Shown here piece by piece: positions 1 to 30,847 of a DNA stretch of 34,029 nucleotides. The notes beneath the pieces were generated by a model. The model was not told the origin of the DNA. It saw nothing but the letters and a program-made list of their open reading frames with translations, and did no database searches. The first letter of the stretch is position 1. The number at the start of each line of letters is the position of its first letter. The DNA is from Candidatus Rokuibacteriota bacterium (GTDB lineage: Bacteria; JAUVQV01; DATDCY01). The stretch lies in assembly GCA_031406795.1 (NCBI GenBank), contig JANOHV010000040.1:1-34029 (forward strand). Reading direction: 5' to 3'. The position numbers and the translations under genes are program-made.

Positions 1-166
1 CGTCGCGATGGTGGTGGTCTCGCACGACCTGGGCGTGATCCGCACCCTGACCTCGCGCACCCTGGTCATGAAGGACGGTCGGGTGGTCGAAGCGGGGCTG
101 ACTGACCAGGTGCTCGAGGATCCTCAACACGAGTACACCCAGCTCATGGTCAGTTCGATCCTGTAG
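1..166 (+). CDS. phnK: C-P lyase ABC-type ATPase PhnK, C-terminal fragment (window edge)
   Basis: Not in the ORF track. The frame from position 2 reads VAMVVVSHDLGVIR...EAGLTDQVLEDPQHEYTQLMVSSIL*, the typical PhnK C-terminus, directly upstream of phnL. Confidence 0.9.
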   Translation, partial: VAMVVVSHDLGVIRTLTSRTLVMKDGRVVEAGLTDQVLEDPQHEYTQLMVSSIL

Positions 167-174
167 GAGGCACG

Positions 175-894
175 ATGCTCGAGGTCAGCGGTCTCGCCAA
201 GTCGTTCACCGTGCACGCGCTCGGGGGCAAGCGCATCGACGGCTTCGCCGACGTGGATTTCCTGGTGACGGCCGGGGAAGTGCTGGTGCTCGCCGGGCCG
301 AGCGGGTCGGGCAAGAGCTCGGTCCTCAAGTGCGTCTACCGCACCTACCTCCCGACCGCGGGCAGCGCGCATTACCACCCGCGGCGGGGCGGGGTCGTGG
401 ACCTGGCCCGGGCTTCCGAGCATGAGGTGCTGCGGCTGCGCGCCGCCGAGATCGGCTGCGTCACCCAGTTCCTCAGGGTCATCCCGCGCGTCCCCGCGGT
501 CGACGTCGTCGCGGAACCGCTGCTGCGAAACGGCTTCGCGCTCCGCGAGGCGCGGGACCGGGCCGCCGAGCTGCTGGCGCGCCTGCAGATCCCGGCGGCG
601 CTGCACGAGGCCTTCCCGGCGACCTTCAGCGGCGGAGAGCAGCAGCGCGTCAACATCGCGCGCGCGGTGATCGGCGAGCCGCGGCTGCTGCTGCTCGACG
701 AGCCCACGGCCTCGCTCGACCGCACGGCGACCGGGATCGTCCTGGAACTGCTCGCGGAGCTCAAGTGCCAGGGGACCGCGCTGGTCGCCGTCTTCCACGA
801 CAAGGAGGCCGCGGACCGGATCGCCGACCGGTTCTGCTGCCTGCCTGAAAGGAGTGAACTGCCATGCCGCTGTGCCAGTGCCGTCCCGATGTGA
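175..894 (+). CDS. phnL: C-P lyase system ATPase PhnL
   Basis: Walker A GPSGSGKS, PhnL-type PATFSGGEQQRVNIAR, LLLDEPTASLD, VFHD; RBS AGGAGG upstream; lies between phnK and phnM. Confidence 0.93.
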   Translation: MLEVSGLAKSFTVHALGGKRIDGFADVDFLVTAGEVLVLAGPSGSGKSSVLKCVYRTYLPTAGSAHYHPRRGGVVDLARASEHEVLRLRAAEIGCVTQFLRVIPRVPAVDVVAEPLLRNGFALREARDRAAELLARLQIPAALHEAFPATFSGGEQQRVNIARAVIGEPRLLLLDEPTASLDRTATGIVLELLAELKCQGTALVAVFHDKEAADRIADRFCCLPERSELPCRCASAVPM

Positions 895-2051
895 CGGCCC
901 GTGGGGACCTCCTCATCGACAACGCCCGGATCGTGACTCCGGATGGGGTCATCGACACGGGAAGCCTCGAGATCGCCGAGGGGCGGATCGCGAAGGTCAG
1001 GGAGTGGGCGGGCGGCCGCACCGGGTGTCGCGTCGACGCCCGCGGGCTGCTGCTCTTCCCGGGGTTCGTCGACATTCACAGCGATGCGATCGAGACGACG
1101 ATTCAGCCGCGCCCCGGCGGCCGCTTCCCGTATGCGATGGCGATCACGGAGCTCGACAAACAGCTCGTCTCCTGCGGGATCACGACGATCTACCACTGCC
1201 TCTCCTTTTCCGACCCCCACGACAAGACGCTGCGGGGCTTTCGGACCTGCGCCGAGCTGATCCGGGAGATCAACCGTCGCGCGCCGGGTCTGCGCGCCGC
1301 AACCAGGGTTCACGCGCGCTTCGAGGTGACCGAGACCGCCGCGTTGCCGATCGTCGAGGAGCTGCTGCGCGAGGACGAGGTGCACCTCTTCTCGGTGATG
1401 GATCACACGCCGGGACAGGGGCAGTTCCTCGACGTCGGGAATTTCCGCGACTACTACGGTCGCGTGCGGGGACGAACCCCGGCCGAGCTCGACACGCTGA
1501 TCGAGGAGCGACTCGCCGCCCGGCGGACCCTCGACGAGCGGCTGCTGCGCGGCATCACGGCGCTGGCGCTCAAGCGCGGCGTCGCGATCGCCAGCCACGA
1601 CGACGATTCCGCGCAGAAGGTGGCCTGGGTTCAGCGGCTCGGCGCAACGCTCTCGGAGTTCCCGGTGAACCTCGCCGCTGCGCGGGCGGCGCACGAGCGC
1701 GGCCTGGCCGTTTCGTACGGGGCGCCGAACGTCTTCCGCGGCGCATCGGCGACGAACAACCTCAATGCCCGCGAGAGCATCGGCGCCGGCTACGGCGACA
1801 TCATCTGCTCGGACTACGCGCCGATGTCGCTGCTGCACGCGGTTCTCGCCCTCGAACGCCTCGGGATCGTCCCGCTGCACGAAGCCGTGAACATGGTCTC
1901 CCGCAACCCGGCCGGCGTGGTGGGGATCGCCGACGAGACCGGTTCCCTCGAGGAGGGGAAACTGGCCGACCTCGTGCTTGTCGATGACCGGGAGGATGTT
2001 CCGCGCGTCGTTCGGACCTTCGTCGCCGGCAGGGAGGTCTTCTGCTCGTGA
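864..2051 (+). CDS. phnM: Alpha-D-ribose 1-methylphosphonate 5-triphosphate diphosphatase PhnM
   Basis: Amidohydrolase motifs PGFVDIHSD, MDHTPGQGQF, ASHDD, SEFP, GAPN, SDY, GKLADLV; RBS GAAAGGAG upstream. Confidence 0.93.
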   Translation: MPLCQCRPDVTARGDLLIDNARIVTPDGVIDTGSLEIAEGRIAKVREWAGGRTGCRVDARGLLLFPGFVDIHSDAIETTIQPRPGGRFPYAMAITELDKQLVSCGITTIYHCLSFSDPHDKTLRGFRTCAELIREINRRAPGLRAATRVHARFEVTETAALPIVEELLREDEVHLFSVMDHTPGQGQFLDVGNFRDYYGRVRGRTPAELDTLIEERLAARRTLDERLLRGITALALKRGVAIASHDDDSAQKVAWVQRLGATLSEFPVNLAAARAAHERGLAVSYGAPNVFRGASATNNLNARESIGAGYGDIICSDYAPMSLLHAVLALERLGIVPLHEAVNMVSRNPAGVVGIADETGSLEEGKLADLVLVDDREDVPRVVRTFVAGREVFCS

Positions 2052-2527
2052 GCGCCGTGTCGTCCCTGACGGTCCGCGACGCCGCGGCCGCGGATGCCAC
2101 GGCCCTCTCCGTGCTGCTCGCGCAGCTCGGGTACCCCATGTCGCCGCTGCTGGTGGCGGTGCGGGTGCTGCATCTCGCGGCGGGCGGCCAGACGCGGGTG
2201 CTGGTCGCCGATGCCGGAACCGGGGCCATCGGCTTTCTGGCGCTCACAAGGGTGGACATCCTGCCGTACCCGGAGCCCGTTGCGCGCATCACCGCGCTGT
2301 GCGTGGCCGAGGGCAGCCGCTGCGCGGGGGTGGGTGGGGCCCTCGAGGAGCGGGCCGCCGAGATCGCCCGCGACTGGGGCTGCGCGAAAGTCGAAGTCAT
2401 CTCCAACCGGTTACGGGTGCGGGCTCACGAATTCTACGAGCGGCAGGGATACGAGCAGACCCATCGTTGCTTCGCCAAACGGCTTCGGAACGAGAACCGA
2501 GGAGGAGATGCCGATGCCACCGGTTGA
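2048..2527 (+). CDS. phnO: GNAT acetyltransferase, PhnO-like (aminoalkylphosphonate N-acetyltransferase)
   Basis: GNAT motif A (RCAGVGGAL); C-terminal AHEFYERQGYEQTHRCFAKRL resembles PhnO; GTGA overlap with the phnM stop. Confidence 0.72.
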   Translation: MSAVSSLTVRDAAAADATALSVLLAQLGYPMSPLLVAVRVLHLAAGGQTRVLVADAGTGAIGFLALTRVDILPYPEPVARITALCVAEGSRCAGVGGALEERAAEIARDWGCAKVEVISNRLRVRAHEFYERQGYEQTHRCFAKRLRNENRGGDADATG

Positions 2528-3374
2528 TCAGCTCGACGTCACTGCGCTGCCGGAGACCCTGCTGACACGGATGCGGGAGACCGCAGTGGCGGCCGCCGCC
2601 GCCGCGGGAGAACTCCAGATGCGTCTCTTCCGGAGCGAGCACCTGGTCCGTGCGGTGTCCGATCACGACCTGACCCTCGATGTCGACAAGCACTGCGAAC
2701 AGGCGATGGTGCGGATCATCAGGGCGGCCTTCCCCCGTCACGGCATCCTTTCCGAGGAAGGCGGAACCGAGCCGGGGGACGAGCCTTATCTCTGGGTGCT
2801 CGATCCGCTCGACGGCACGGTAAACTACTATCATGGGATTCCGTTCTTCTGCGCCTGCGTCAGCTGCCATCGACGGCCGGACGCGGCGGTGACGTCGGCC
2901 TTCTCGCGCAGGCTCGGCACGGTCGCCGCGGCCGTCTGCGCCCCCGCACTCGGCGAGAGCTTCGCCGCGGCACTCGGCCGCGGCGCCGAGCTCAACGGCG
3001 GGACCCTCGCCTGTCCCGACACCTTCGATCTCGCGAGCGCGGTGTTCGGGGTCAGCCTCGGCAGCAGGCCGGAGGACACCGAGGCGATGCTCCGCCTCTG
3101 CCGGTCCCTCGGCGCGAAGGCACGGAAGTTGCGCTCGTTCGGCGCCACGGGATACGACCTGGCGCAGGTCGCGGCCGGCCGGCTCGGCGGGCTCGCGCAG
3201 AAGAGCGTGAACCTCTGGGACGCCGCGGCCGGAGCGCTCATTCTCGAGGAGGCCTGCGGGGTGGTCGAGGGTCGCCCGGCCGCCGGCGGGCGCTGGGACA
3301 TGGTCGCGGCCGCCCCGGGGGTTCACGCGCGGCTTTCAACGCTGGTGCGCGAGGCATGGACGACGTTCGCCTGA
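2514..3374 (+). CDS. Inositol monophosphatase (FIG superfamily) phosphatase
   Basis: Motifs SEEG, WVLDPLDGTVNY, WDAAAG. Start moved to ATG 2514 after GGAGGAG (2508 is an alternative); the ORF-track start at 2094 overlaps phnO. Confidence 0.88.
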   Translation: MPPVDQLDVTALPETLLTRMRETAVAAAAAAGELQMRLFRSEHLVRAVSDHDLTLDVDKHCEQAMVRIIRAAFPRHGILSEEGGTEPGDEPYLWVLDPLDGTVNYYHGIPFFCACVSCHRRPDAAVTSAFSRRLGTVAAAVCAPALGESFAAALGRGAELNGGTLACPDTFDLASAVFGVSLGSRPEDTEAMLRLCRSLGAKARKLRSFGATGYDLAQVAAGRLGGLAQKSVNLWDAAAGALILEEACGVVEGRPAAGGRWDMVAAAPGVHARLSTLVREAWTTFA

Positions 3375-3916
3375 TCATCATCACGGTCCCGCCCCCGGCC
3401 GTGCGCGCCGAACTCTCGAAGCTGCGGGCAACCTGCTCCGGGGTTTCCTCGTCGCACGCCGCATCGGTCTACCCTCCGCACATCACCCTGCGGACCGGTG
3501 TCCTCGTGCCGGAGGTCGAGATGCCGGTCTTCCTGGCCGAATTCGGTTCCCACCTGCAGGGCGTCGGCCCGTGCGAGATCCGCACCGGAGCCATCGTCTC
3601 CACGACGCTCAGGCGCGACGATCGGGAGGTGCCGATCGTCGCACTGGAGATCGAGCCGGACGGGGCGCTGGTTTCGTTGCACGAGCGGCTGCTGCGCTAC
3701 GATCGCTACCGCGCGAGCGACCGCACCGGCTTCTGGCCGCACCTGACGCTCGCCTTCCAGGATCTCAGCGCGGATGGCCGCCGACGCCTCGAGGCCTATC
3801 TGGCCGCCCGGGAGGAACTGCGGTCGCGGCGGTTCCTCTGGAACTGCGACAACGTCTCGCTCTACCGGCAGCGCGGGAGGCGCTGGCAGCCCCGCCACGT
3901 CTACAAGCTGGCGTAG
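3356..3916 (+). CDS. 2H phosphoesterase (2'-5' RNA ligase / cyclic phosphodiesterase superfamily)
   Basis: Two HxT motifs (PPHITL, WPHLTL) about 85 aa apart in a 186-aa protein; overlaps the upstream gene end. Confidence 0.85.
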   Translation: MDDVRLIIITVPPPAVRAELSKLRATCSGVSSSHAASVYPPHITLRTGVLVPEVEMPVFLAEFGSHLQGVGPCEIRTGAIVSTTLRRDDREVPIVALEIEPDGALVSLHERLLRYDRYRASDRTGFWPHLTLAFQDLSADGRRRLEAYLAAREELRSRRFLWNCDNVSLYRQRGRRWQPRHVYKLA

Positions 3917-4656
3917 TGCGGCGCGGCGGTCCACGCAGGAGACGGTGCGCCGCTGCGCAGCAACGGGGCGATCTCCGGGGGCAGGCCGGCCGCAACCAGT
4001 GCGCGGGCGTTCGCCTCGACGTCATACGGGACGCGCAGAATCTGGGCGCAGACGGCGGCTGGGGTGATCTCGACCACCGCGCACGCCGCGCGCGGGTCGC
4101 CGTCGACCGGCTTGCCGACGGAGCCGGGGTTGACCAGCGTGGTCCTGCCGAGCCGTTCGATCCTCGGGAGATGCGAGTGCCCGAGGACGACGATGTCGGC
4201 GCCGGTCTCGCCGGCCCGCCTCGCCCAGGCGCTCTGCTCGCGCGCGAGTTCCGCCTCGCCACGGTCGCCGACCTGGCCGTGGGCGAGCAGGATGTTCCGG
4301 TTTTCGAAGACCAGCCACCGGATCACGGCCAGCTGCCGCAGACGGCTGCGCGTCTGCTCGCTGACCCGGGATTGCGTCCAACGCAGCGACGCCTCCCTGA
4401 GGCGGGCGAGACTCCCGGACGCCGGCCCGCAGCCGCAGTCGGGGTGCATCTGGGCGACCGCCTCGTCGTAGTTGCCCTGGACTTCGATGACCTGCTCCTT
4501 CCCGAGAAGCTCGACGCACTCGTCGGGAAAGGCGGAGTACCCGACGCTGTCGCCGGTGTTCAGGATCGCGCTCACGCCGCAGCGCCGCAGCGCGCTCAGC
4601 ACACTGCCGAGTGCGGCGAGGTTGCCGTGAATGTCGCCGATGATCCCGAGACGCAT
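3901..4656 (-). CDS. Calcineurin-like metallophosphoesterase (YfcE/MJ0936-like)
   Basis: Motifs DIHGN, GD, GNYD, HG, GHSH, NPGSVG; RBS AAAGGGAGG; 34 nt downstream of phnE. Confidence 0.88.
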   Translation of the reverse strand: MRLGIIGDIHGNLAALGSVLSALRRCGVSAILNTGDSVGYSAFPDECVELLGKEQVIEVQGNYDEAVAQMHPDCGCGPASGSLARLREASLRWTQSRVSEQTRSRLRQLAVIRWLVFENRNILLAHGQVGDRGEAELAREQSAWARRAGETGADIVVLGHSHLPRIERLGRTTLVNPGSVGKPVDGDPRAACAVVEITPAAVCAQILRVPYDVEANARALVAAGLPPEIAPLLRSGAPSPAWTAAPHYASL

Positions 4657-4690
4657 CGCGTTCGTCCTCCCTTTCGTGGTGACGACCGTC

Positions 4691-5497
4691 TCAGACGAAC
4701 AGCCGTCTCAGCCGCGAGCTCGCGACGTCGACGAGACTCACGGTGACGATGATGATCAACAGCATTGCCGCAGTCTCGCTGTACTGGAAACTGCGGATCG
4801 CGTCCCAGAGCACCATGCCGATGCCGCCCGCGCCGACCATGCCGACGATGCTCGCCGAACGGACGTTGGCCTCGAACCGGTAGAGGGAGTAGGAGACCCA
4901 GAGCGGCATCACCTGCGGGATGACGCCGAAGGCGATGTCCTCCAGCGCGTTGGAACCCGTCGCGCGGATGCCTTCCACCGGGCGCGGGTCGATCGCCTCC
5001 ACCGCCTCGGAGAAGAGCTTCGCCAGCGTCCCGCTGGTGTGGACGAACAGCGCCAGGACGCCCGCGAAGGGGCCGAGGCCGACCGCGGCGATGAAGAGCA
5101 TCGCGAAGATCATCTCGTTGATCGAGCGGGCGGCGTCCATGAGCCGCCGGGTCGGCTGGTAGACCCACAGGGGCACCACGTTCGACGAGGAGAGCAGCCC
5201 GAGCGGCACCGCCGCGAGGACGGAGAGCACCGTCCCCCAGACGGCGATGTGGATCGTGATCAGCATCTGCTCGAGATAGAGGCGCCACTCGCCGAAGCTC
5301 GGCTTCGCGAAGCCGCGGAGGTACTGGACCATGTTCTCCCGGTACGTCCAGAGGTCAAGCGGCTTGAGCTCCAGCACGATGGAGGACCAGACCAGGTACG
5401 CCAGGACGGCGGCCGCGACGCCGCCCCGGGCGATCCACACCCGCCGCGAAGTGCGGGGAATCTCCAGGCCGAGTTGGAACATCGTCGTTTCTGTCAT
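4691..5497 (-). CDS. phnE: Phosphonate ABC transporter permease PhnE
   Basis: [56 protein letters not shown]. Confidence 0.95.
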
Positions 5498-5512
5498 GGA
5501 ACCGCCCGCCGC

Positions 5513-5543
5513 GCGAGGGGAGGGGCGTCAGCCCCCCCCCGCG
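5513..5543 (-). other. GC-rich hairpin between phnD and phnE (possible mRNA-stabilising stem)
   Basis: Imperfect inverted repeat GGGGAGGGGC-gtca-GCCCCCCCCC just after the phnD stop; no U-tract. Confidence 0.4.
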
Positions 5544-5548
5544 TCGGT

Positions 5549-6571
5549 CTACTCCTCGTGGAACTTCGAGAGGTTTTGCACGTACGACTTCAGCTCGCTG
5601 AGCTGGTCGGCCAGGGAGGCGAGCTTGGCCTTGTCCTCGGCGCTTTGCTCCGGCTTGCCCTGGATCTTCAGCGTCTCCTTGATGATTTCGATCTCGCGGA
5701 TCGGGAGCAGCTGCCGGTTGTTCGACTCGTTGAAGGGCGCCCAGCCGCTGGAGAGCCCGGCGAGCACCTGCCGCTGCCGCTCGACGTCTGCGCCGACGCG
5801 GCCGTACGAGAGGACGAAGCCCTTGATGCGGGCCTTCAGTTCCTTCGACAGGTCCTTGCGCCAGACGAGGGGGTCGCTCGGGATCAGCGGGCTCTTCCAG
5901 ATCGGCTTCACCTGGGCGGCCATTTCAGGCTGCGTCTTCTGGAGCTTCCCGAGGTTCTCGGTGTTGTTCGTCGCGAAGTCGACCTTCTTGTTGGCCACGG
6001 AGAGCAGGTTCGCCTCGTGGTTGGAGTTGACGACCCGCTTGAAAGTCTTCATCGGGTCGATCCCGCGCTGCGCCCAGAGGTAGTAGTTCGGGATCAGGTA
6101 CCCCGAGGTGCTGTTGGGGTCGCCGTTGCCGAAGGTCAGGTCCTTCGCGTTCTTCACGATGTCGTCGATCGAGTTGTAGGGGCTGTCCTTGTGCACGAGG
6201 ATCAGCGACCAGTAGCCCGGGTTGCCGTCCTTGTCGACCGTCTGCGCGAAGATCTCGCCGCTGGAGCGGTCCACCGCCTCCATCGCGGACTTGTTGCCGA
6301 ACCAGGCGATGTGGACCTTGCCGAAGCGCATCCCCTCGATGACTCCGGCGTAGTCCGTGGCGAAGAACGCGTTGACCTTCATCCCCAGCGCCTTCGACAT
6401 GTCCTCGAGGAACGGCTCGAAACCTTTCCTCAGCCCCTGGGTGGATTCGGTCGAGATGATGCCGAAGTTGAGCTCCTTGATCTCCTCCGGCCTGTTCACC
6501 GACGCGCCGGCCGCCGAAGCGGCCAGCAGTGCGATGCCGAGCAACGGTGCGATGAACCTGAACGAACGCAT
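5549..6571 (-). CDS. phnD: Phosphonate ABC transporter substrate-binding protein PhnD
   Basis: Signal peptide; LNFGIISTES, DYAGVIEGMRF, GNGDPNSTSGYL, WKSPLIPSDP; RBS AAGGAGG. Confidence 0.95.
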   Translation of the reverse strand: MRSFRFIAPLLGIALLAASAAGASVNRPEEIKELNFGIISTESTQGLRKGFEPFLEDMSKALGMKVNAFFATDYAGVIEGMRFGKVHIAWFGNKSAMEAVDRSSGEIFAQTVDKDGNPGYWSLILVHKDSPYNSIDDIVKNAKDLTFGNGDPNSTSGYLIPNYYLWAQRGIDPMKTFKRVVNSNHEANLLSVANKKVDFATNNTENLGKLQKTQPEMAAQVKPIWKSPLIPSDPLVWRKDLSKELKARIKGFVLSYGRVGADVERQRQVLAGLSSGWAPFNESNNRQLLPIREIEIIKETLKIQGKPEQSAEDKAKLASLADQLSELKSYVQNLSKFHEE

Positions 6572-6616
6572 GTCCGAGACCTCCTTGCTTTGCGGTTGTT
6601 GTCGTGGCGCCGCGGG

Positions 6617-7528
6617 TCAGTTCAGGCAGCCCGCGCCCGCCGGGTCACCAGGGGGATCGAAGATCGGCGGTGCACCGTGGCGTGCTCCGTGAAACTCGGG
6701 AAGTGCCGGATGCGCCTGCGTCGCCCGCGGCGTGCTTGCGCCGTCGCCGCACCAGTTCACGCAGCTGCCGTAGACGTTCCGCAGAAGATCCGGCGTCAGG
6801 TCGTGCGTCGGGCCGTCGAAGACCACGCGCCCGTCCTTGAGCGCGACGGAGCGGGGACAGTAGCGCCAGGCGTAGTCGATCTGGTGCAGGCTGACGAGGA
6901 CCGTCGCCCCGTCCTCCCGGTTGAGGGTCGCGAGCGCGGCCATGACCCGGTGCGAGGACTCCGGGTCGAGGGAGGCGATCGGCTCGTCGGCGAGGATCAC
7001 TTTCGCCCCCTGGACCATCGCCCGGGCGATCGCCCCGCGCTGCTGCTGCCCGCCGGAGAGGGTGCTGGCCCGCTGGCCGGCGTGCTCCGCGATGCCGACA
7101 CGCTCGAGCGATGTCAGCGCGGCGTGTTTCTCCGCCCGGGTGAAGCAGTGGGCGGCGCTGCGCCAGGTCGGCACGCGCGCGAGCATGCCGACGAGCGTGT
7201 TGGTCAGGAGCGTGAGCCGGCCCACGAGGTTGAACTGCTGGAAGATGAAGCCCACGCGACTGCGGATGCGCCTGATGTCGCGGGCGACTTTGCCGCCACT
7301 CTGGACGATCTGACCGTGCACCCGGACTTCGCCGCCGCGGCGATCGGCCGGGATCAACCCGGCGACGTGCCGCAGCAGGGTGGACTTGCCGGAGCCCGAG
7401 GTCCCGATCAGGGCCACCATCTCCCCGGGCGCGACGCGGACGCCGACCCGGTCCAGGGCTTTGCGCTGCGCAAAGGTCTTGCGCAGATCGGTCACCTCGA
7501 TCGCCGCCGCTTCGTTTGATCCGCTCAT
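6617..7528 (-). CDS. phnC: Phosphonate ABC transporter ATP-binding protein PhnC
   Basis: [41 protein letters not shown]. Start set at ATG 7528 after AGGAGG. Confidence 0.95.
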
Positions 7529-7640
7529 CGCGTGCCTCCTTGCCGTTGCTCGGGCCAACCCGTTGCCCTTCGTTATCCTCCCGACAGATTGGGGGCGTGT
7601 GTGGCTGGGATGTTGTTCCTGTGCGTTCGCGTGCCGCCTG

Positions 7641-7684
7641 AAAAAGGTTGGGGGTCGAACGCCCGGGGGAGGCGCTCGACCCCC
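7641..7684 (-). terminator. Probable intrinsic terminator between the porin gene and phnC
   Basis: Stem GGGGGTCGAaCGCC / GGCGcTCGACCCCC (7650-7684) followed on the minus strand by AACCTTTTT. Confidence 0.55.
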
Positions 7685-7793
7685 TGCAGGAGGAGGATCG
7701 GGGGGCAGGCTTTCCCCCCAATGAGCGAGACCCACCGGCAGGATGCGTCTCGCTCTCGAGGGGGAAGGCCTGGCCCGCCCGGTGGCCCTCCCG

Positions 7794-8972
7794 TTAGAAC
7801 TTGATGCGGGCGCCGGCCATCATGCCGCCGATGTCCGCGTAGTCCTTGCCGGTGCGGTCGAGCGTGTGGGTGCGGTAGCCGAGGTAGAGCTCCGTCCCGT
7901 AGGTGTCGAGCCGCTGGACGAAGAAGGCGCCGATGGTCTTCGCCTCGTCCTTGTCCTTCTTCATGTCGTTCGTGGCGGAGTAGTCCACGGCGAAGGAGGT
8001 GCTGCCGGCGAAGAACAGTTTCGCCGTGTACCCGAGCTTGGCGTAATAGAACAGCGGGTCCTCCTTGCGGGCCGGGTCGTCGAGCTTCTGCTGCCCGGCC
8101 GCGGCGGTGACGCTCAGGCCGAACGGCATCAGCACCGAGACCGAACCGTTGTACTGCTTGATGGAATCGCGCCCCGAGAGCTTGCTGCCGTCGCCCATGT
8201 CGGCGAACGCAGCGGCGGCCTCAAGCTTGACCCCGCCGAATTCTGCGCCGTAGCGCAGCGCTGCGTCCCAGGCCTTCTGGGCGGTGGTGGAGGCGGAGAG
8301 GGTGAAGCCGGCGAGCTTCGGGGTGTCATAGCGCACGCGGTCGTCGCGGCTGAGGCCGTCGAGGTTGTCGAAGACTTCCTTGATCTTGGGGTTGAACTTC
8401 TTGTCAACCGCCGCGTGGATCGTCTTACCGTCCTTGTCCAGGACCGACGCCTTGGCGGCCGCCTCGACGAGACTCCCGGTCTTGTTGTCGAAGAAGACGA
8501 TCCCGCCGGCGAACATCCTCACGTCGGAGTAGCCGATCACGGAGGTGCCCGAGAGGTCGACCTCGGAGGTGTTGTTGGACGCCGTGTCGCCCTGGCCGAG
8601 CGAGAGCTTCCCGAAGTTGCCGCTCAGGTAGAAGTCCAGGTGTCGCTCCGAGAACGTGACCGGGGTGGTCCGCTCGAGGGTCTGGTTGATGTCGCCGGTG
8701 GAGTTGGACTGGATTTCGGCCTCAATCTTCGACCCGACGGTCAGACTGCCGCCTTCGAGCGTCGCCTTGGCGTCGATGCCGATGCGCGTCGAAGAGTTCT
8801 TGTTGTCGACGAAGTAGAGCTTGCTCTGGTCGCCGTCGTCCACCCAGAGCAGCCCGCGGTCGACCTGTCCGTAGAGTTTGACGCTCGGGGCCGCCTGCGC
8901 CCCCTGCGCTGCAACGACGCCCGCGAGGACGAGCGCCGCCGCCAACTGCCACTTGCCATTGCCTGCTTTCAT
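7794..8972 (-). CDS. Gram-negative porin, probably linked to phosphonate/phosphate uptake
   Basis: Signal peptide, VKLYGQVD start, [22 protein letters not shown]-terminal Phe; upstream of and co-oriented with phnCDE. Start set at ATG 8972 after GGGAGG. Confidence 0.85.
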
Positions 8973-9041
8973 TCCTGCCTCCCTCTCCTGGTTGAACCCC
9001 ATGCCGCCGCGGCACCGCGCCGGACGACTCACACGGAGGCT

Positions 9042-9085
9042 ACGGTAGAAGGGCAAGGTTAGGAAGGGCTCTGGACCAGGTTAAG
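9042..9085 (-). promoter_or_regulatory. Pho-box-like direct repeat plus -10 element for the porin/phnCDE unit
   Basis: Minus strand CTTAACCT (9085-9078) and CCTAACCT (9063-9056), 22 bp apart; TACCGT at 9047-9042. Confidence 0.55.
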
Positions 9086-9145
9086 ATCGCATTGCGCGTG
9101 GATGAGCACGTCATCCACCGCGGCCGGAACTGCAGGCGCCGTCCC

Positions 9146-9817
9146 CTACAGCGTCTTCTTGTGGATGTACGCCTCGATCATCTGAAACCCCTGGCGGCCC
9201 GGGTCGATGAACCGCGCCCCGTACTTCGTGTCCCTGCCCGGCAGCGACTCGACCCGCAGGATCTCGGTCGTGATGTGGAGCTGGCCCTGGCCGGGTAGCA
9301 CCAGGTGGAGTTCGGGGCGGTCACCGACCGCCATCGCGTGGTTCGTCGAGAAGAGGATGCCCGTGGCGCTGATGTTCTCGCTGCGCCCGAAGAACGGCGC
9401 GCTGTGCACGGCGCCGCTGATCCGCACGCCGACGAGCACCCGGAAGTCCTTTCGCGCGGCCACGTCGATCAATGAGCGCACCGCCCCGAGGAAGTCCTCC
9501 TGGTCGAGCGGGCGAAGGAAAGTCCGATTGGCCGCGCACCTCTTCACGGTGCCCAGGGACGCTGCGGTACCGATGACGATCAGGGACACGTTTCGCAGCG
9601 CCGCGTCCGCCCGGAAGGTGCGGCAGATCGCCTCGGGAGGAACGCCCGGCAGCAGCACGTCGAGGATCACCAGGCGCGCCTGGTGCTGGCGGTGCAGTTC
9701 GATGATCTCCTCGCCGTCGCGGGCGCCGAGGATGGAGAGTTCGCGGGAGACTGAGATGCTCTGCCGGTGCTTCTCCAGGAGCAGGGCCATCCGCTCCCCG
9801 GCGATAATGTGTTTCAT
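9146..9817 (-). CDS. Atypical receiver domain fused to a PilZ domain
   Basis: REC-like N-half (ARDGEE, LVILD); PilZ motifs RKDFR (RxxxR) and NISATG (NxSxxG). Confidence 0.8.
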   Translation of the reverse strand: MKHIIAGERMALLLEKHRQSISVSRELSILGARDGEEIIELHRQHQARLVILDVLLPGVPPEAICRTFRADAALRNVSLIVIGTAASLGTVKRCAANRTFLRPLDQEDFLGAVRSLIDVAARKDFRVLVGVRISGAVHSAPFFGRSENISATGILFSTNHAMAVGDRPELHLVLPGQGQLHITTEILRVESLPGRDTKYGARFIDPGRQGFQMIEAYIHKKTL

Positions 9818-10022
9818 CCGCGACGACTATAGCACGCGCACGGTGCTCGATTCGGCTGGCGCTGGTCGTTCACCCGGAAAGGTTCTCTGCCGGGGGTGGC
9901 CCCTGACAGCGCGCCGAAGGGGATGCCACGTGAATCGCGCGCTGCGAGCCGGCATGAACCCTCTCCGCTCCGAGATGCCGCCGGGTTGTCGCCGATGGTC
10001 AGCGATGGTAGCAGAATCGGCA

Positions 10023-10087
10023 TTCGCACACTATTCATGCACGGTTCATCTCCCGTTCATCATGCCTTCTCCTTCGGCGCCTATGTT
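10023..10087 (+). promoter_or_regulatory. cre-tag-like direct-repeat array (OmpR-family site, probably CreB) plus -10 element
   Basis: TTCGC/TTCAT/TTCAT/TTCAT/TTCTC at 10023, 10034, 10045, 10056 and 10067 (exact 11-bp period); TATGTT at 10082. Confidence 0.7.
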
Positions 10088-10147
10088 CATGGCCAACAAG
10101 GGGGCGTCACGGGGTCGCCAACCACCAACGGAGGAGATGAAGTCGCC

Positions 10148-12166
10148 ATGAGAAGCATCAGGCCGGTCGTCGTCGCAAGCATACTTCTGATCGTCGCCAT
10201 GTGTTGGACGGTTCCGCTGGTTGCGGCGCCCGACGCCGCCAAGACGCTGGCACCCTATTTCCTCGTCGAGGGCGAGGAATCTACCGTGGATCAATTCCCG
10301 TTGAAGAGCACCGACGTGCAGGTGTCGATCGGCGGGGTCATCGCCGAGGTCACCGTCCGGCAGTCCTATCAGAACGGCGGGGACCGCCCCATCAACGCCA
10401 GGTACGTCTTTCCGGCGTCGACCCGCGCTGCCGTCCACGGCATGAAGATAACGATCGGCGAGAAGGTGATCATCGCCAGAATCAAGGAGCGGGAGGCCGC
10501 GCAGGCCGAGTTCCGGGAGGCGAAGGCGAGCGGGAAGACCGCCTCCCTGCTCGAGCAGCAGCGGCCGAACGTCTTCATGATGAGCGTGGCCAACGTGCTG
10601 CCGGGGGACATCGTGGACATCGAGCTGATTTACACCGAGTTGCTCGTGCCCACCGACGGCGCGTACGAGTTCGTCTTCCCCACCGTGGTCGGGCCGCGGT
10701 ACTCGAGCCAGCCGGAGGCGACCGCGCCCGCGGAGGACCGGTTCGTCAAGAATCCCTACCTGAAGGAGGGCCTGGCGACCCCGTCGCGCTTCTCGATCGC
10801 CACGCAGATCGCCGCCGGGCTGCCGATCCAGGAGATCGCCTGTCCCTCGCACCTGGTCAAGACGACATGGACGGACAAGACCGCGGGGAGCGTGACCCTC
10901 GACGAGAGCGAAACGGCCGGCGGCGACCGCGACTACATTCTGCGCTACCGTCTCGCGGGCCGGCAGATCGCCTCCGGCCTGCTGGTCTACGAAGGTCCCG
11001 AGGAGAATTACTTCCTGCTGCTCGCCGAGCCGCCGCAACGGGTGAGCCCGGCCGACATCCCGGCGCGCGAGTACATCTTCGTCGTCGACGTCTCGGGGTC
11101 GATGCACGGGTACCCGCTCGACGTCGCCAAGGGACTACTCAAGGACCTGATCGGACGGATCCGGGCGACCGACACCTTCAACGTGGTGCTCTTCTCCGGC
11201 ACGTCCGCGCTGCTCGCGGAGCATTCGGTGCAGGCGACCCCCGAGAACGTCGCCAGGGCGCTCGCGCTGATCGACCGCCAGCAGGGAGGCGGCGGCACCG
11301 AGTTGCTCGCCGCGATGAAGCGCGCGATGGGGATCCCGCATGCCGAGGGGTTCTCGCGCAGCATCGTGCTGGTGACCGACGGCTTCATCGACGCCGAGCG
11401 CGATCTGTTCGGCTCCATCGGCGAGAACCTCGACGAAGCCAACGTCTTCGTGTTCGGCATCGGGAGCAGCGTCAACCGTTACCTGATCGAGGGCGTGGCC
11501 AAGGCCGGTCTCAGCGAGCCGTTTGTCGTCACGAAGCCCGACGAAGCGCCGGCAGCCGCCGAGAAGTTCCGCGAGTACGTGCAGTCGCCGGTGCTGACCG
11601 GCATCGAGCTGAAGACCGAGGGGCTCGAGGGCGTCGCGATGGAGCCTGCCAGCATCCCCGACCTGTTCGCCGAGCGGCCGATCGTCGTCACCGGGAAGTG
11701 GCGGGGTGCGCGGACCGGCCGCCTCGTCGTGACCGGGCACGGCGGGGCCGGGGAGTACCGGCAGGAGTTCGATCTCGAGCGGACCGAGCCGTCCGAGGCA
11801 GCCGCGGCCCTGCCCATCCTCTGGGCGCGGACGCGGATCGGCCGCCTATCGGAGTTCGGCCCGCGGAGCGTCGATCCCCAGACGAAGGCCGAGATCACCG
11901 AACTGGGGCTGAAGTACAACCTGCTCACGGCCTACACGTCGTTCATCGCGGTGCATGAGGAGATCCGCAACCCCGGCGGCGAGGCGCAGAACGTCAAGCA
12001 GCCGTTGCCACTGCCGAAAAACGTGTCCGAACTGGCGGTCGGCGGCGACACGAGATCGGTGCCGGAGCCCGGCCTCGGCTGGCTGATCGCGCTGGCGATG
12101 CTCGTCTTCGGCTCCCGGTGCGCGATCGGATGCCTGCGCTGCCGTCCGCTGTCGATCCGTTTCTGA
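10148..12166 (+). CDS. VIT + vWA domain protein with PEP-CTERM sorting signal
   Basis: Signal peptide, VIT domain (YVFP...AAVHGMKITIG, ASLLEQQRPNVF), vWA MIDAS DVSGS / GGGTE / TDG, C-terminal VPEP + hydrophobic helix + Arg-containing tail. Start set at ATG 10148 after GGAGGAG. Confidence 0.9.
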   Translation: MRSIRPVVVASILLIVAMCWTVPLVAAPDAAKTLAPYFLVEGEESTVDQFPLKSTDVQVSIGGVIAEVTVRQSYQNGGDRPINARYVFPASTRAAVHGMKITIGEKVIIARIKEREAAQAEFREAKASGKTASLLEQQRPNVFMMSVANVLPGDIVDIELIYTELLVPTDGAYEFVFPTVVGPRYSSQPEATAPAEDRFVKNPYLKEGLATPSRFSIATQIAAGLPIQEIACPSHLVKTTWTDKTAGSVTLDESETAGGDRDYILRYRLAGRQIASGLLVYEGPEENYFLLLAEPPQRVSPADIPAREYIFVVDVSGSMHGYPLDVAKGLLKDLIGRIRATDTFNVVLFSGTSALLAEHSVQATPENVARALALIDRQQGGGGTELLAAMKRAMGIPHAEGFSRSIVLVTDGFIDAERDLFGSIGENLDEANVFVFGIGSSVNRYLIEGVAKAGLSEPFVVTKPDEAPAAAEKFREYVQSPVLTGIELKTEGLEGVAMEPASIPDLFAERPIVVTGKWRGARTGRLVVTGHGGAGEYRQEFDLERTEPSEAAAALPILWARTRIGRLSEFGPRSVDPQTKAEITELGLKYNLLTAYTSFIAVHEEIRNPGGEAQNVKQPLPLPKNVSELAVGGDTRSVPEPGLGWLIALAMLVFGSRCAIGCLRCRPLSIRF

Positions 12167-12192
12167 CAGGCTGCTGAAGACGGCCAGAAAAC

Positions 12193-12216
12193 GTCATTGC
12201 GAGCGGAGCGAAGCAA
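12193..12216 (+). repeat. Degenerate GTCATTGCGAG-type REP-like repeat
   Basis: GTCATTGCGAGCGGAGCGAAGCAA, related to the reverse-strand copy at 23405-23438. Confidence 0.55.
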
Positions 12217-12230
12217 ACTGACTGCTGATT

Positions 12231-12989
12231 ATGGACAGAACGCGCACGCGCAGTGGTATTGCGGCCTCCGCACTGGCAATCCTGATCGCCGTCGGGCTCA
12301 AGGCGCACTACAGCACGGCGTCCGTCGATCGGCTGGGCTGGATCATGCGGCCGACGGCGGGGCTCGTGGAGTTGTGCACCGGGCTCCCCTTCGAATGGGA
12401 GGCGGGCGCCGGGTATGTCAACCAGGAGCACCGCGTGGTCATCGCCAAGCCCTGCGCAGGCGTCAACTTCCTGATCATGGCCTTCTGCATGCTGGCCTTC
12501 ACGCTGATCGGCCGCGCCGGAGCGGGCCGCCGCCCCTTCCCGATGGTGGCGGCCGCTCTGGCGGCGGCGTACGCGGCGACGGTGATCGTCAACGGCGTCC
12601 GGATCATGATCGCGCTCCGGCACGACGGCGACGGCGTCGGCAACGGTTGGCTGACCCCCGAGCAGCTCCATCGGCTCGAAGGGATCGTCGTCTACTTCGC
12701 GGCGCTCACGGGGCTCTACTGCCTGGCCCGGTTAATCGCGCGCGCCTCCGGCGGCCGTCCGGGCCGCTCCCCGGTCGAGCACCCGACGGCGTCGCGGCTC
12801 GGACGGAGTTCGATTGTTTTCGTCCCCCTCGGCTGGTACGCGGCCATGACGCTGGGCGTTCCGCTGCTGAACGGAGCGATGAGTAAGGACGCGGCGCAGT
12901 TCGGGGAGCACGCGCTCTGGGTTCTGGGCGTCCCGCTCGTCCTGTCGGGAATCCTGCTGCTGGCGTCCTCAGGATACGCGCGTCGATAG
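12231..12989 (+). CDS. xrtK: Exosortase, exosortase K-like
   Basis: Multi-TM protein with an exosortase Cys-Arg-His triad: PCAGVNF, NGVRI, LHRLEG. LKAHYSTAS...WIMRPTA resembles XrtK as recalled; adjacent to a PEP-CTERM target. Confidence 0.75.
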   Translation: MDRTRTRSGIAASALAILIAVGLKAHYSTASVDRLGWIMRPTAGLVELCTGLPFEWEAGAGYVNQEHRVVIAKPCAGVNFLIMAFCMLAFTLIGRAGAGRRPFPMVAAALAAAYAATVIVNGVRIMIALRHDGDGVGNGWLTPEQLHRLEGIVVYFAALTGLYCLARLIARASGGRPGRSPVEHPTASRLGRSSIVFVPLGWYAAMTLGVPLLNGAMSKDAAQFGEHALWVLGVPLVLSGILLLASSGYARR

Positions 12990-14411
12990 CGGGAGGGTGA
13001 GGACCGCGCGGACTCCCCCTTCGGGGCGGTTCGCCACGGCGATCTCGCCCCGATGCAGCGTCGCGACCTCCCTGACGCAGCTCAGGCCGAGCCCGGTGCT
13101 CTTGCGCATCGTGTCCGGCCGGCTCAGTGAGTAGAACTGCTCGAAGATCTTGTCGACCGCGTACTCCGGAATGCCGGTCCCGTTGTCCTCCACCGTCACG
13201 ACGCACGAGGCTCCGTGCTTTTCCACACCGATGGTGATCGTGCCCCCCTCGGCGACGAAGTCGATCGCATTGGACACCAGGTTGGCAATCGCCTGGCGCA
13301 GCAGGAAGCGCTCGCCGCTGGTCCGGACGACCTCCGGGGCCGCGATGGTAATCGTTATGCGTTTGCATTCCAGGACCGCGGCCTGGCTCTGCACGATCTC
13401 CCTGGCCAGCGCGACGAGGTCGATCTCCTCGACGTCCTTGAGCCCCTTGCGGTTCTCCAGCGCCGACAGATCGAGCAGCCGCTCGACGATGTTCTGGATG
13501 CGCTGGCTCTCCGTGCGGATGTTCTCGAGGAACCGGGCGCGTCGCTCGGGGGGCATGTTCTCGTTCATCAGCTCCGCGGCCCCCCGGATCGCGGAGAGCG
13601 GGCTCTTGATCTCGTGCGTCAGCGTCTGCACGTAGGTCTCCACATAGTTCTTCCCCTCGAGCGCTTCGCGCATCTCCTCGAGCGCCCGCCCCATGACCGC
13701 GATCTCGCTGCGGCCCAGCCGCGGCAGCGCCACGTTGCGGTTGTCGCGGATCGCCCGCGCATACGCCGTCAGCCGCTTGATCGGCAGCGTGACCCAGATC
13801 GAGAGCCCCAGGCCGAGCAGGATCGCCGAGAGCGAGGCGATCCAGGCCGCGGTGATGATCTTCCGGCGCGCCAGGTCGATGAACAGGTTCACGCTGCCGC
13901 TCGGCTTGACCACCGTGAGCACACCGATCGTCTCCCGGCCGTTGGTGATCGGCGAGGCGACGAACAGCGACGACAGATTCGGGTCCCTCGGGTCGACGTG
14001 GCTCGTGCGCGCGCCGTACTCGCCCGCGAGGGTCAGCCGGACGTCGTTCCAGCGGGAGTAGTCCTTCCCCTCTTCCTTCCCTCCGTCGGAATCGAAGAGC
14101 ACGATCCCCTTGCGGTCGGTGACGTAGACGTGGATGTTGATCCGCTTCTTCTCCAGATCGTAGATGCGGGCCGAGAACTCGCGGCGGTAGGCGTGGTCGA
14201 AGGCCGCCCGCAGGTCCTCCACCGGGATTTCGCTGCCGGTGGCCCTGGTCGACACCTGGGAGGCCAGCAGCGTGGCGGTGTCGATCAGCGACTCCTCCAT
14301 CGACTTCATGTAGTGCGGGCGCACATCGTTGATGATCCAGTGCGCGAGGTAGTAGAAGCCGACGGCGATGATCAGCAGGAAGCCGAGGATGATCCGGGTG
14401 CCGATCTTCAC
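12969..14411 (-). CDS. creC: Two-component sensor histidine kinase CreC
   Basis: DYSRWNDVRLTLAGEYGARTS, YVETYVQTLTHEIKSPLSAIRGAAEL, EQFYSLSRP, STGLGL. GTG start at 14411 overlaps the creB stop (GTGA). Confidence 0.92.
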   Translation of the reverse strand: MKIGTRIILGFLLIIAVGFYYLAHWIINDVRPHYMKSMEESLIDTATLLASQVSTRATGSEIPVEDLRAAFDHAYRREFSARIYDLEKKRINIHVYVTDRKGIVLFDSDGGKEEGKDYSRWNDVRLTLAGEYGARTSHVDPRDPNLSSLFVASPITNGRETIGVLTVVKPSGSVNLFIDLARRKIITAAWIASLSAILLGLGLSIWVTLPIKRLTAYARAIRDNRNVALPRLGRSEIAVMGRALEEMREALEGKNYVETYVQTLTHEIKSPLSAIRGAAELMNENMPPERRARFLENIRTESQRIQNIVERLLDLSALENRKGLKDVEEIDLVALAREIVQSQAAVLECKRITITIAAPEVVRTSGERFLLRQAIANLVSNAIDFVAEGGTITIGVEKHGASCVVTVEDNGTGIPEYAVDKIFEQFYSLSRPDTMRKSTGLGLSCVREVATLHRGEIAVANRPEGGVRAVLTLPLSTRVS

Positions 14412-15106
14412 GGCGCGTCTTTGAGACAGTAGCCGAACCCCCGGCGCGTCTCGATGGGATCGCCCTTCGGGTCGACGGCGCGCAGCTTGCCGCGGATGTT
14501 CTTGATGTGCGCGTCGACGGTCCGGTCGAGGCAGGCCTCCGGGTTCTCCCACGCCAGGTTCATCAGCTCGTCGCGCGAGAAGACGCGCCCCGGGTGCCTC
14601 ACGAGCGTCGCGAGCACGTTGAACTCGCTTCGGGAGAGATCGAGGGGCCGGCCGAGGTAGGAGATCGCCATCCGGGTGCCGTCGATCCGGAAGACGGCGG
14701 TGACTGCCTGCTGCGGGGCCGGGCCGGCAGCGGGCCGCGCCGTCCGCCGCAGGATCGCCTTGACTCGCGCTGTGAGTTCACGGGGGCTGAAAGGCTTCAC
14801 GAGGTAATCGTCGGCGCCGATCTCCAGGCCGACGACGCGGTCGATCTCCTCCGCGCGCGCCGTCAGAAACATGATCGGGACCGCGGATTCATGCCGGATC
14901 TGTTTGCACAGTTCCAGTCCGCTGATGTCCGGGAGGCCGATATCAAGCACGATCAGTGCGATGTCGCCCGCCGCCAGCCGCCGTCGCCCATCCTCCCCGG
15001 TCATGTGCCAGACCGGCTCGAACCCGTCGGTTTTCAACGCGTAGACGATGGTGTCGGCAATCGCCGCCTCATCCTCGATGATCAGTACCTTGGGCGCCAT
15101 CAGCAT
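14408..15106 (-). CDS. creB: Two-component response regulator CreB (OmpR family)
   Basis: IEDE, LDIGLPD, KPFSPREL, wHTH DRTVDAHIKNIRGKL; paired with creC. Start is 15106 or 15100. Confidence 0.9.
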   Translation of the reverse strand: MLMAPKVLIIEDEAAIADTIVYALKTDGFEPVWHMTGEDGRRRLAAGDIALIVLDIGLPDISGLELCKQIRHESAVPIMFLTARAEEIDRVVGLEIGADDYLVKPFSPRELTARVKAILRRTARPAAGPAPQQAVTAVFRIDGTRMAISYLGRPLDLSRSEFNVLATLVRHPGRVFSRDELMNLAWENPEACLDRTVDAHIKNIRGKLRAVDPKGDPIETRRGFGYCLKDAP

Positions 15107-23360: not shown

Positions 23361-23404
23361 GCTCACTCTCCTTTAGTGTTATGCGCCTGTGGTGAAAATT
23401 CCAT

Positions 23405-23438
23405 GAGATTGCCGCGTCGCTGCGCTCCTCGCAATGAC
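23405..23438 (-). repeat. GTCATTGCGAG-type REP-like repeat between qmoC and sat
   Basis: Minus strand GTCATTGCGAGGAGCGCAGCGACGCGGCAATCTC. Confidence 0.65.
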
Positions 23439-23455
23439 GTGAGGCACCGTCCTCG

Positions 23456-24664: not shown

Positions 24665-24673
24665 TGTTTCTCC

Positions 24674-26803: not shown

Positions 26804-26807
26804 GCTC

Positions 26808-28073: not shown

Positions 28074-28142
28074 GCACGCTCTCCTTGCTGGGTACAAATC
28101 ATCTGCCCGCGGCGGGCGTCAGGGATGTCTGCGAGGGGGTGA

Positions 28143-28181
28143 GAAAAACCCCGGGGAAGGGCCGTGAGACCCTCCCCCGGG
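28143..28181 (-). terminator. Terminator-like hairpin between aprA and qmoA
   Basis: CCCGGGGAAGGG / CCCTCCCCCGGG stem followed on the minus strand by GTTTTTC. Confidence 0.6.
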
Positions 28182-28191
28182 AACGCGACTG

Positions 28192-30198: not shown

Positions 30199-30230
30199 GC
30201 TGTTTTATTCCTCCTTGGTCCGGCCGGCGG

Positions 30231-30647: not shown

Positions 30648-30847
30648 CAGCTCTCCTCCTTGTTGACGGTCCCGACAGCGGGACACTCCTGGGAACCTGC
30701 GATTCCCGTTCTGGGTAACCTGCGTGCGCTTCCTTTCCGGCCGTCACCTCCCTGTCCAAAGCCCTCGTCCAGTCGTAACCCGTTCCCGTTGGTCGCTTCA
30801 CACCGGACGAAGCGTGCCGCCGGCGCGGTGAATCACGCGTTCTTCAT

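Follow-up and report, generated by a model that had tools for sequence, protein, structure and literature searches.

An inositol monophosphatase-family protein and a 2H phosphoesterase end a C-P lyase operon and may process its cyclic phosphate product in place of PhnN and PhnP

The pathway of carbon-phosphorus (C-P) lyase is the main bacterial route to the phosphorus of methylphosphonate, glyphosate and similar compounds, and it gives rise to methane in oxic water. To our knowledge, its last steps are described only for PhnP and PhnN of E. coli and for one enzyme of the PHP family. The locus considered here raises the question of how these steps could proceed in an operon that ends with neither phnP nor phnN. 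The window, by which we mean the whole 34,029-nt stretch that was analyzed (contig JANOHV010000040.1, positions 1 to 34,029, of Candidatus Rokuibacteriota assembly GCA_031406795.1), opens within such an operon. The last two genes of the operon encode an inositol monophosphatase (IMPase)-family phosphatase and a protein of the 2H phosphoesterase superfamily (Table 1). A previous sequence-only reading of this stretch had proposed the pair as a replacement for PhnP and PhnN, and the analysis described below followed up on that proposal.

On balance, we favor the reading that the IMPase and the 2H protein process 5-phosphoribosyl 1,2-cyclic phosphate (PRcP), by way of ribose 1,5-bisphosphate, to ribose 5-phosphate and inorganic phosphate (Pi). 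PRcP is the product of PhnJ, as stated in two published accounts (PMC3840354, PMC9947105). The 2H enzyme would open PRcP to ribose 1,5-bisphosphate through its two His-x-Thr motifs, which is the task of PhnP in E. coli, and the Mg-dependent IMPase would then hydrolyze the 1-phosphate, yielding ribose 5-phosphate and Pi. The phosphate removed in this second step would be the one that carries the phosphorus of the original phosphonate. We infer both catalytic steps from gene context, residues and fold.

Considering first the genes themselves, the stop codon of phnM (2049-2051) overlaps the GTG start at 2048 of the subsequent GNAT acetyltransferase gene by 4 nt (GTGA), the GNAT stop (2525-2527) overlaps the IMPase gene, with its ATG at 2514, by 14 nt, and the IMPase stop (3372-3374) overlaps the 2H gene, with its ATG at 3356, by 19 nt. 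The sequence-only reading had described the ends from phnM to the 2H gene as overlapping, and this is what is read from the sequence; the interval that it gave for the pair, 2514-3916, is exactly the span from the IMPase start to the 2H stop. For the IMPase, the GGAGGA at 2501-2506 suits the ATG at 2514 better than that at 2508. Further upstream, the phnL stop (892-894) overlaps phnM by 31 nt if the latter starts at the ATG at 864, or by 4 nt if it starts at the GTG at 891. Judged by G+C content at third codon positions (GC3), the IMPase and 2H frames look real, with values of 0.84-0.94 in the called frames (0.86 and 0.90 among them), as compared to 0.70 in the long open reading frames (ORFs) opposite the IMPase and 2H genes. 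The codon GC3 of the two genes is also that of their neighbors.

The absence of phnN and phnP after the 2H gene, as claimed in the sequence-only reading, could be confirmed, since neither profile scans nor tblastn of the window revealed PhnN, PhnP or a PHP-family hydrolase. Specifically, 21 further window ORFs gave no NCBIfam match at E <= 1e-5 to PhnN, PhnP or a PHP-family cyclic phosphate hydrolase, nor did the whole window yield a tblastn match when queried with the PhnP and PhnN proteins of E. coli and of Methylibium or with PhnN and the DUF1045 protein of Sinorhizobium. When the 2H protein and the IMPase were scanned against NCBIfam, no PhnP model was likewise matched. No window gene matches the PhnN model TIGR02322, with the IMPase sharing only the slot of PhnN, and neither the PhnPP model NF041661 nor a PHP domain was matched by eight window proteins in Pfam and NCBIfam scans, with NF041661 also finding no match among the 21 further ORFs. 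What does lie on the downstream side of the 2H gene is a convergent gene for a YfcE-type metallophosphoesterase, followed by phnE, phnD and phnC. These statements on phnP and phnN cover the 34-kb window and, for the related loci described below, about 10 kb to either side. One label of the sequence-only reading stands only in part: a GNAT gene does occupy the position of phnO, but its product misses the PhnO cut-off by far and shares 36% identity with E. coli PhnO over 86 residues. The protein is thus, from its sequence, PhnO-like at best.

To consider the pair beyond the window, related loci were sampled by means of the peptide pattern YPPH[IV]TLRT in one genome per species, yielding 29 loci with a relative of the 2H protein. 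Their contents were scored by tblastn with the window proteins, by ORF clustering and by family scans of cluster representatives. The loci belong to Spirochaetota, Lentisphaerota (Victivallales), Desulfobacterota, Planctomycetota, SAR324 and unclassified metagenome-assembled genomes (MAGs). C-P lyase genes are present in 26 of the 29, and the usual order is phnG-H-I-J-K-L-M, a hexapeptide transferase gene (TIGR03308), IMPase and 2H, with the hexapeptide transferase holding in most related loci the position that the GNAT protein has in the window. The gene directly upstream of the 2H gene, on the same strand, encodes an IMPase in 19 loci. The IMPase ORF is intact in 18 of them, and in 15 of these 18 its stop shares exactly 4 nt (ATGA or GTGA) with the 2H start; since overlaps of this kind usually indicate translational coupling, the two genes are likely to be coupled in this way.

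Other genes are also found in the slot before the 2H gene. In three loci, all from Desulfobacterota (L012, L014 and L028), it is PhnN; in L015 it is a PHP-family hydrolase, the only PhnPP-like protein among the 29 loci; in L020 it is a protein of the AP_endonuc_2 or xylose isomerase-like TIM barrel type (Table 1); and in L018 phnM itself directly precedes the 2H gene. The 2H gene of L029 has phnE as its neighbor and is otherwise on its own. An IMPase and PhnN occur together in none of the 29 loci, and PhnN matches are confined to three loci without an IMPase, such that the two are mutually exclusive within the fetched stretches. As for PhnP, the E. coli protein found a single weak match of 58 residues (L002, E 1.6e-4) in the 29 loci and nothing else. 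This match was discarded as chance or a remnant, since the matched strand holds no ORF of at least 60 residues there and the Methylibium PhnP query missed L002. At E <= 0.01, neither Methylibium PhnP nor the Sinorhizobium DUF1045 protein had a tblastn match in the window or the 29 loci. Judged by gene order, C-P lyase operons of several phyla share the IMPase-2H pair as a conserved end-piece, and its pairing does not appear to be a chance neighborhood. The proposal that the pair replaces PhnP and PhnN is accordingly supported in its comparative parts, namely the conserved end-piece, the apparent exclusion of IMPase and PhnN (19 against 3 loci, none with both) and the lack of a clear PhnP.

Some single loci deserve separate mention. 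The IMPase of L004 (9146-9971) is split over two overlapping frames, reflecting either a frameshift (that is, a pseudogene) or an assembly error. In L008, phnL and phnM form one ORF of 651 residues (7210-9165), and a second phnM follows the 2H gene at 10594-11760. In L017, a SAR324 MAG, the 2H gene and a divergent IMPase-like gene are arranged tail to tail, with a phoB-like regulator gene nearby (9974-11515, 13721-14464). Among the database ORFs, one of 214 residues (P0258) joins a 2H-family N-terminus to pieces of PhnH and PhnI; this is probably a frame or assembly artefact, yet it is another contig in which a 2H gene touches C-P lyase genes. With regard to fusions, the 2H protein had no match among proteins of 327-2000 residues, which is weak evidence, and an IMPase or PhnN domain was absent from 10 longer or odd matches, P0258 among them, from the profile search of the 2H family. 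No match to the 2H protein was found by tblastn among 72,556 plasmid records.

The 2H protein is a member of its superfamily by three measures, namely both His-x-Thr/Ser motifs, a match to PF13563 and the 2H fold. In the window protein, the motifs read H42-I-T44 and H129-L-T131, and H42-x-T44 and H129-x-T/S131 are kept in all 28 aligned members; it should be noted that the first motif was part of the pattern used in the locus search, while the second was not. Twenty-nine relatives came up in a word-indexed search, of which the nearest is 74% identical. When 1.84 billion representatives were searched with a profile, the matches numbered 70 at E <= 1e-30, 209 at E <= 1e-10 and 1059 at E <= 0.001. 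The best named matches come from Candidatus Methylomirabilia MAGs, at 69% identity for the 2H protein and 79% for the IMPase, and the names that databases give to the two proteins are '2'-5' RNA ligase family' and 'inositol monophosphatase family', respectively. In a protein atlas, only generic 2H clusters were matched.

An AlphaFold model of the 2H protein, built from 17 sequences, has a predicted local distance difference test (pLDDT) score of 94.1 and a predicted template modeling (pTM) score of 0.87. Its best fold match in the PDB is YjcG of B. subtilis (2D4G), with template modeling (TM) scores of 0.77/0.84, followed by the cyclic phosphodiesterase (CPDase) of Arabidopsis (1JH6/1FSI; TM 0.74/0.75), with LigT/ThpR behind at about 0.56-0.62. 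Of 50 PDB matches at E <= 0.001, 40 were listed, and 37 of these 40 bear names of phosphoesterases, 2'-5' RNA ligase-like proteins or known relatives of these. The same two proteins head the list of a sequence profile search, YjcG at E 1.9e-7 and, as a weak match, the Arabidopsis enzyme at E 0.0012. YjcG is thus the best match both in sequence, at 18% identity, and in structure.

The IMPase belongs to PF00459 by its profile match and its metal-binding residues (EE, DPxDG and WD). Residues E81, E82, D97, D100 and D236 correspond to E67, E68, D84, D87 and D212 of SuhB and are unchanged in all 29 aligned members of its clade. This clade comprises 19 proteins encoded next to a 2H gene (from 18 loci and the window) and 10 top database matches, and is set against 21 other IMPases, including E. 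coli SuhB. In the maximum-likelihood tree, it is supported by an ultrafast bootstrap (UFBoot) value of 99 and a Shimodaira-Hasegawa-like approximate likelihood ratio test (SH-aLRT) value of 100. Three rows with long branches (L017_conv2H, P0133 and P0139) were left out of this tree, and the L004 copy was used in no tree; a quick tree with all 53 rows gave the clade a support of 99. At the edge of the group, database scores drop from at least 208 bits to 124 bits. The IMPase misses every equivalog cut-off considered, scoring 121.1 bits against 275 for HisN, 108.1 against 332 for SuhB, 106.1 against 264 for the fructose bisphosphatase (FBPase)/IMPase model and 50.3 against 229 for CysQ.

The operon-linked clade shares the fold family and metal ligands of SuhB-type IMPases and FBPase/IMPases but stands apart from them in several residues. 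In place of the Asp found in 14 of 20 ordinary members it has Lys205, and in place of the Glu found in 17 of 20 it has Gln229; the latter position is probably that of the inositol-binding Glu213 of human IMPase. These two exchanges would make the pocket less acidic and hence suited to a more anionic substrate, such as a bisphosphate. The motif FFCxC(I/V)xCH contains two cysteines, C113 and C118, that never vary within the clade, whereas ordinary IMPases mostly have Ala, Val or Ser there; they could form a metal or redox site.

The choice of ribose 1,5-bisphosphate as the intermediate is based on the analogy to the plant enzyme and on the loci in which the 2H gene is coupled to phnN. The Arabidopsis CPDase opens a ribose 1,2-cyclic phosphate to the 1-phosphate (PMC4201822), and the conversion of PRcP to ribose 1,5-bisphosphate would, by this analogy, be the same chemistry at the same ribose positions. 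It should, however, be considered that the plant enzyme shares only 12-15% identity with the window 2H protein, is eukaryotic, acts in the metabolism of a tRNA-splicing by-product and has a substrate carrying ADP rather than a 5-phosphate. As for PhnN, this enzyme needs ribose 1,5-bisphosphate and is paired in three loci with close relatives of the window 2H protein, which nest among the 2H proteins paired with an IMPase, and so the shared product of these 2H proteins is probably ribose 1,5-bisphosphate. Taken further, and with less confidence than in the pathway itself, one may tentatively envision a modular back end of C-P lyase operons outside the proteobacterial models, in which a YjcG/CPDase-like 2H protein is the constant opener of PRcP and an interchangeable, coupled gene before it decides the fate of the phosphorus. 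The latter could be PhnN, leading to phosphoribosyl pyrophosphate (PRPP), a PHP hydrolase, a TIM-barrel enzyme or the new IMPase clade, which would act as a 1-phosphatase dedicated to ribose 1,5-bisphosphate, setting Pi free directly and sparing the ATP of PhnN.

Several points weigh against the proposed pathway and need to be considered. The 2H gene occurs without C-P lyase genes in three of the 29 loci (L017, L023 and L025; in L017, within 10 kb of the 2H gene), and the 2H family is thus not strictly tied to the C-P lyase pathway. Many bacterial 2H enzymes act on the 2',3'-cyclic ends of RNA or nucleotides. YjcG, the closest structure, has no assigned activity according to PMC4201822. Nineteen of the 29 loci are from Spirochaetota and all were found with one search motif, so the locus counts are not independent events and exaggerate how many such events there are. 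In the tree of 2H proteins, those paired with PhnN nest among those paired with IMPase with an SH-aLRT support of only 81-84. The partner in L015 resembles PhnPP, which is reported to perform both steps, and this would leave the 2H protein there without a clear job. In both the window and L007, a YfcE-type phosphodiesterase adjoins the 2H gene, and it could contribute to the diesterase step or carry it out by itself. Finally, phnP, phnN or phnPP could lie elsewhere in the source genome, the start of the operon included, or in the genomes of the 29 loci.

Of the other explanations, the one that fares best retains the substrate but changes the regiochemistry: the 2H enzyme would open PRcP to ribose 2,5-bisphosphate and the IMPase would remove the 2-phosphate, which amounts to the route of PhnPP divided over two enzymes. 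Enzymes of the 2H type acting on 2',3'-cyclic phosphates do usually leave a 2'-phosphate, according to PMC4201822, and the PHP protein that fills the IMPase slot in L015 has the PhnPP model as its best match. Still, the same 2H family is coupled in three loci to PhnN, which by its product name uses ribose 1,5-bisphosphate, and the closest characterized structure leaves a 1''-phosphate on its 1'',2''-cyclic substrate, and we consider the 2,5 route unlikely. Slightly less likely again is that the pair serves the phosphonate or phosphate-starvation response with a substrate other than PRcP, be it side products or dephosphorylated products of the pathway, or other cyclic or sugar phosphates that are scavenged. 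The three loci without C-P lyase genes, the 2H gene of L017 beside an IMPase-like gene and close to phoB, and the variety of enzymes in the slot before the 2H gene are all in line with such a role. Nonetheless, C-P lyase operons account for 26 of the 29 loci, with the pair lying where E. coli has phnN and phnP, and IMPase and PhnN exclude each other.

It is improbable that PRcP is opened in this organism by the YfcE-type metallophosphoesterase, with the 2H protein having another role. The gene of this enzyme, which the sequence-only reading missed, closes the phnC-D-E unit and directly adjoins the 2H gene, their convergent stops overlapping by 16 nt. A relative with 46% identity (L007:10795-11499, minus strand, in a Victivallales MAG) has the same convergent position and is followed by a second phnM. 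This relative is, however, the only one among the 29 loci, as compared to 19 loci with an IMPase, the 2H gene being constant by construction of the sample. The metallophosphoesterase may instead serve as an additional phosphodiesterase in the response to phosphonate or to phosphate starvation. Least probable of all, and already disfavored, is a meaningless neighborhood in which a housekeeping RNA 2',3'-cyclic phosphodiesterase and a SuhB- or HisN-type IMPase came to follow phnM by chance: although both proteins bear only generic family names and the IMPase profile is closest to solved SuhB-type IMPases, the order is kept in loci of Spirochaetota, Lentisphaerota, Planctomycetota, Deltaproteobacteria and unclassified bacteria as well as in the window, the 4-nt overlaps recur, and the IMPases form a clade of their own outside all equivalog cut-offs.

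The proposed pathway should be viewed against the systems that are already known. With PhnP and PhnN of E. coli, the pair shares the place at the end of the operon, the proposed substrate PRcP and the proposed first product, ribose 1,5-bisphosphate, and PhnN itself partners the 2H family of the window in three loci. PhnP is a metallo-beta-lactamase-fold enzyme, whereas the 2H fold is metal-independent and bears no sequence relation to it. While PhnN of E. coli spends ATP and makes PRPP, the IMPase would release Pi and ribose 5-phosphate. PhnPP, from a 2013 study, is reportedly a single PHP-fold enzyme that performs both hydrolyses via the 2,5-bisphosphate. The net result proposed here, ribose 5-phosphate and Pi from PRcP without PhnN, is the same as that reported for PhnPP, but PhnPP is one enzyme and the window would use two unrelated ones, probably via the 1,5-bisphosphate.

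The idea of a 2H protein in the place of PhnP has been published before. In marine clusters without phnP, a 2H protein, DUF1045, was proposed as a PhnP substitute by Martinez et al. 2013 (PMC3840354), a proposal of which the sequence-only reading was unaware. DUF1045 (PF06299) resembles the window protein in belonging to the 2H superfamily and in occurring in C-P lyase clusters without phnP. Villarreal-Chiu et al. 2012 (PMC3266647) counted it in 78 of 223 operons and, in 86% of cases, next to phnN; it is mostly alpha- and beta-proteobacterial (PMC3266647), and in Sinorhizobium its gene was seen adjoining phnN. A 2024 preprint still refers to duf1045-phnMN only as 'key accessory proteins' (10.1101/2024.07.19.604230). 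The 2H family of the window differs in being paired mostly with an IMPase rather than with PhnN, and is a different family by profile. Indeed, PF06299 found no match to the window 2H protein even at E <= 1, the NCBIfam matches of the 17 members of the 2H alignment (A1) are limited to NF010223 and TIGR02258, and hhalign of A1 against a Sinorhizobium plasmid DUF1045 protein (PF06299, 183.9 bits) gave a probability of 0.2%. The window protein would thus represent a second 2H family in the role proposed for DUF1045, either by separate recruitment or by very deep divergence. For an IMPase as a partner of C-P lyase operons, nothing was found in open-access papers and bioRxiv, although an earlier mention in the main C-P lyase review, the PhnPP paper or the 2H classification is possible.

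If the proposed pathway holds, two activities would be added to those considered for C-P lyase operons, a PRcP phosphodiesterase of the 2H type and a ribose bisphosphate phosphatase of the IMPase type, and two groups of proteins with only generic annotations would gain names. It would also provide a complete Pi-yielding pathway in mostly uncultured and probably largely anaerobic Spirochaetota, Lentisphaerota, Desulfobacterota, Planctomycetota and relatives of the organism studied here. Surveys that score phnP and phnN would call such operons incomplete.

Table 1 Genes and other features of the phosphonate region in the window, with genes found before the 2H gene in related loci. Coordinates refer to the window unless a locus is given.
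Feature	Coordinates	Strand	Evidence
phnK 3' end (C-P lyase ATPase, last 54 codons)	2..166	+	TIGR02323, E 1.1e-17, profile positions 190-239 of 239; gene start outside window
phnL	175..894	+	TIGR02324, 269.3 bits (cut-off 256.3)
phnM (ribose 1-phosphonate 5-triphosphate, RPnTP, diphosphatase)	864..2051	+	NF011990, 421.6 bits (cut-off 233); TIGR02318, 386.8 bits
GNAT acetyltransferase in phnO position, weakly PhnO-like	2048..2527	+	PF00583, E 2e-10; NF007530, 32.8 bits (cut-off 142)
IMPase-family phosphatase, operon-specific clade; proposed ribose 1,5-bisphosphate 1-phosphatase	2514..3374	+	PF00459, 145.2 bits (cut-off 27)
2H phosphoesterase (YjcG/CPDase-like); proposed PRcP phosphodiesterase	3356..3916	+	PF13563, 48.1 bits (cut-off 27)
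YfcE-type metallophosphoesterase	3901..4656	-	PF12850, E 3.1e-26; TIGR00040, 66 bits (cut-off 56)
phnE (phosphonate ATP-binding cassette (ABC) permease)	4691..5497	-	TIGR01097, 291.5 bits
phnD (phosphonate-binding protein)	5549..6571	-	TIGR03431, 333 bits
phnC (phosphonate ABC ATPase)	6617..7735	-	TIGR02315, 279.6 bits; match from residue 79 of 372-residue ORF
Terminator-like hairpin between porin gene and phnC	7650..7684	-	15-pair stem, 11 G-C pairs, T-run
Gram-negative porin gene, precedes phnC	7794..9056	-	PF13609
PhnN before 2H	L012:6029-6586		TIGR02322, about 200 bits (cut-off 156)
PhnN before 2H	L014:9381-9986		TIGR02322, about 200 bits (cut-off 156)
PhnN before 2H	L028:~3446-3982		tblastn, E 1e-37
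PHP-family hydrolase before 2H	L015:9097-9993		Best NCBIfam match NF041661 (PhnPP), 200.8 bits, below cut-off 500
AP_endonuc_2 / xylose isomerase-like TIM barrel before 2H	L020:9031-9984		

Two converging phosphonate transcription units fill the first 7.7 kb of the window. As about 77 N-terminal residues of the longest phnC ORF lie outside the PhnC models, the true start of phnC is probably downstream of 7735. No promoter-like sites were found in positions 1-9500, and the four terminator-like sites of the region are as many as in shuffled sequences (mean 4.2), which should be considered when referring to the hairpin before phnC. No Rfam family reached its gathering score in the window, and no tRNA was found there.

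Beyond the phosphonate genes, positions 9896-15106 of the window contain a gene whose product resembles the marine proteobacterial sortase target (TIGR03788, 393 bits, below cut-off), a gene for exosortase K and a CreC/CreB-like two-component pair, both members of which score above E. coli-type cut-offs. Further on, a complete aprB-aprA-qmoA-qmoB-qmoC-sat cluster of dissimilatory sulfur metabolism occupies positions 21795-30743 on the minus strand, with AprA, QmoC and Sat scoring 893, 425 and 405 bits, respectively.

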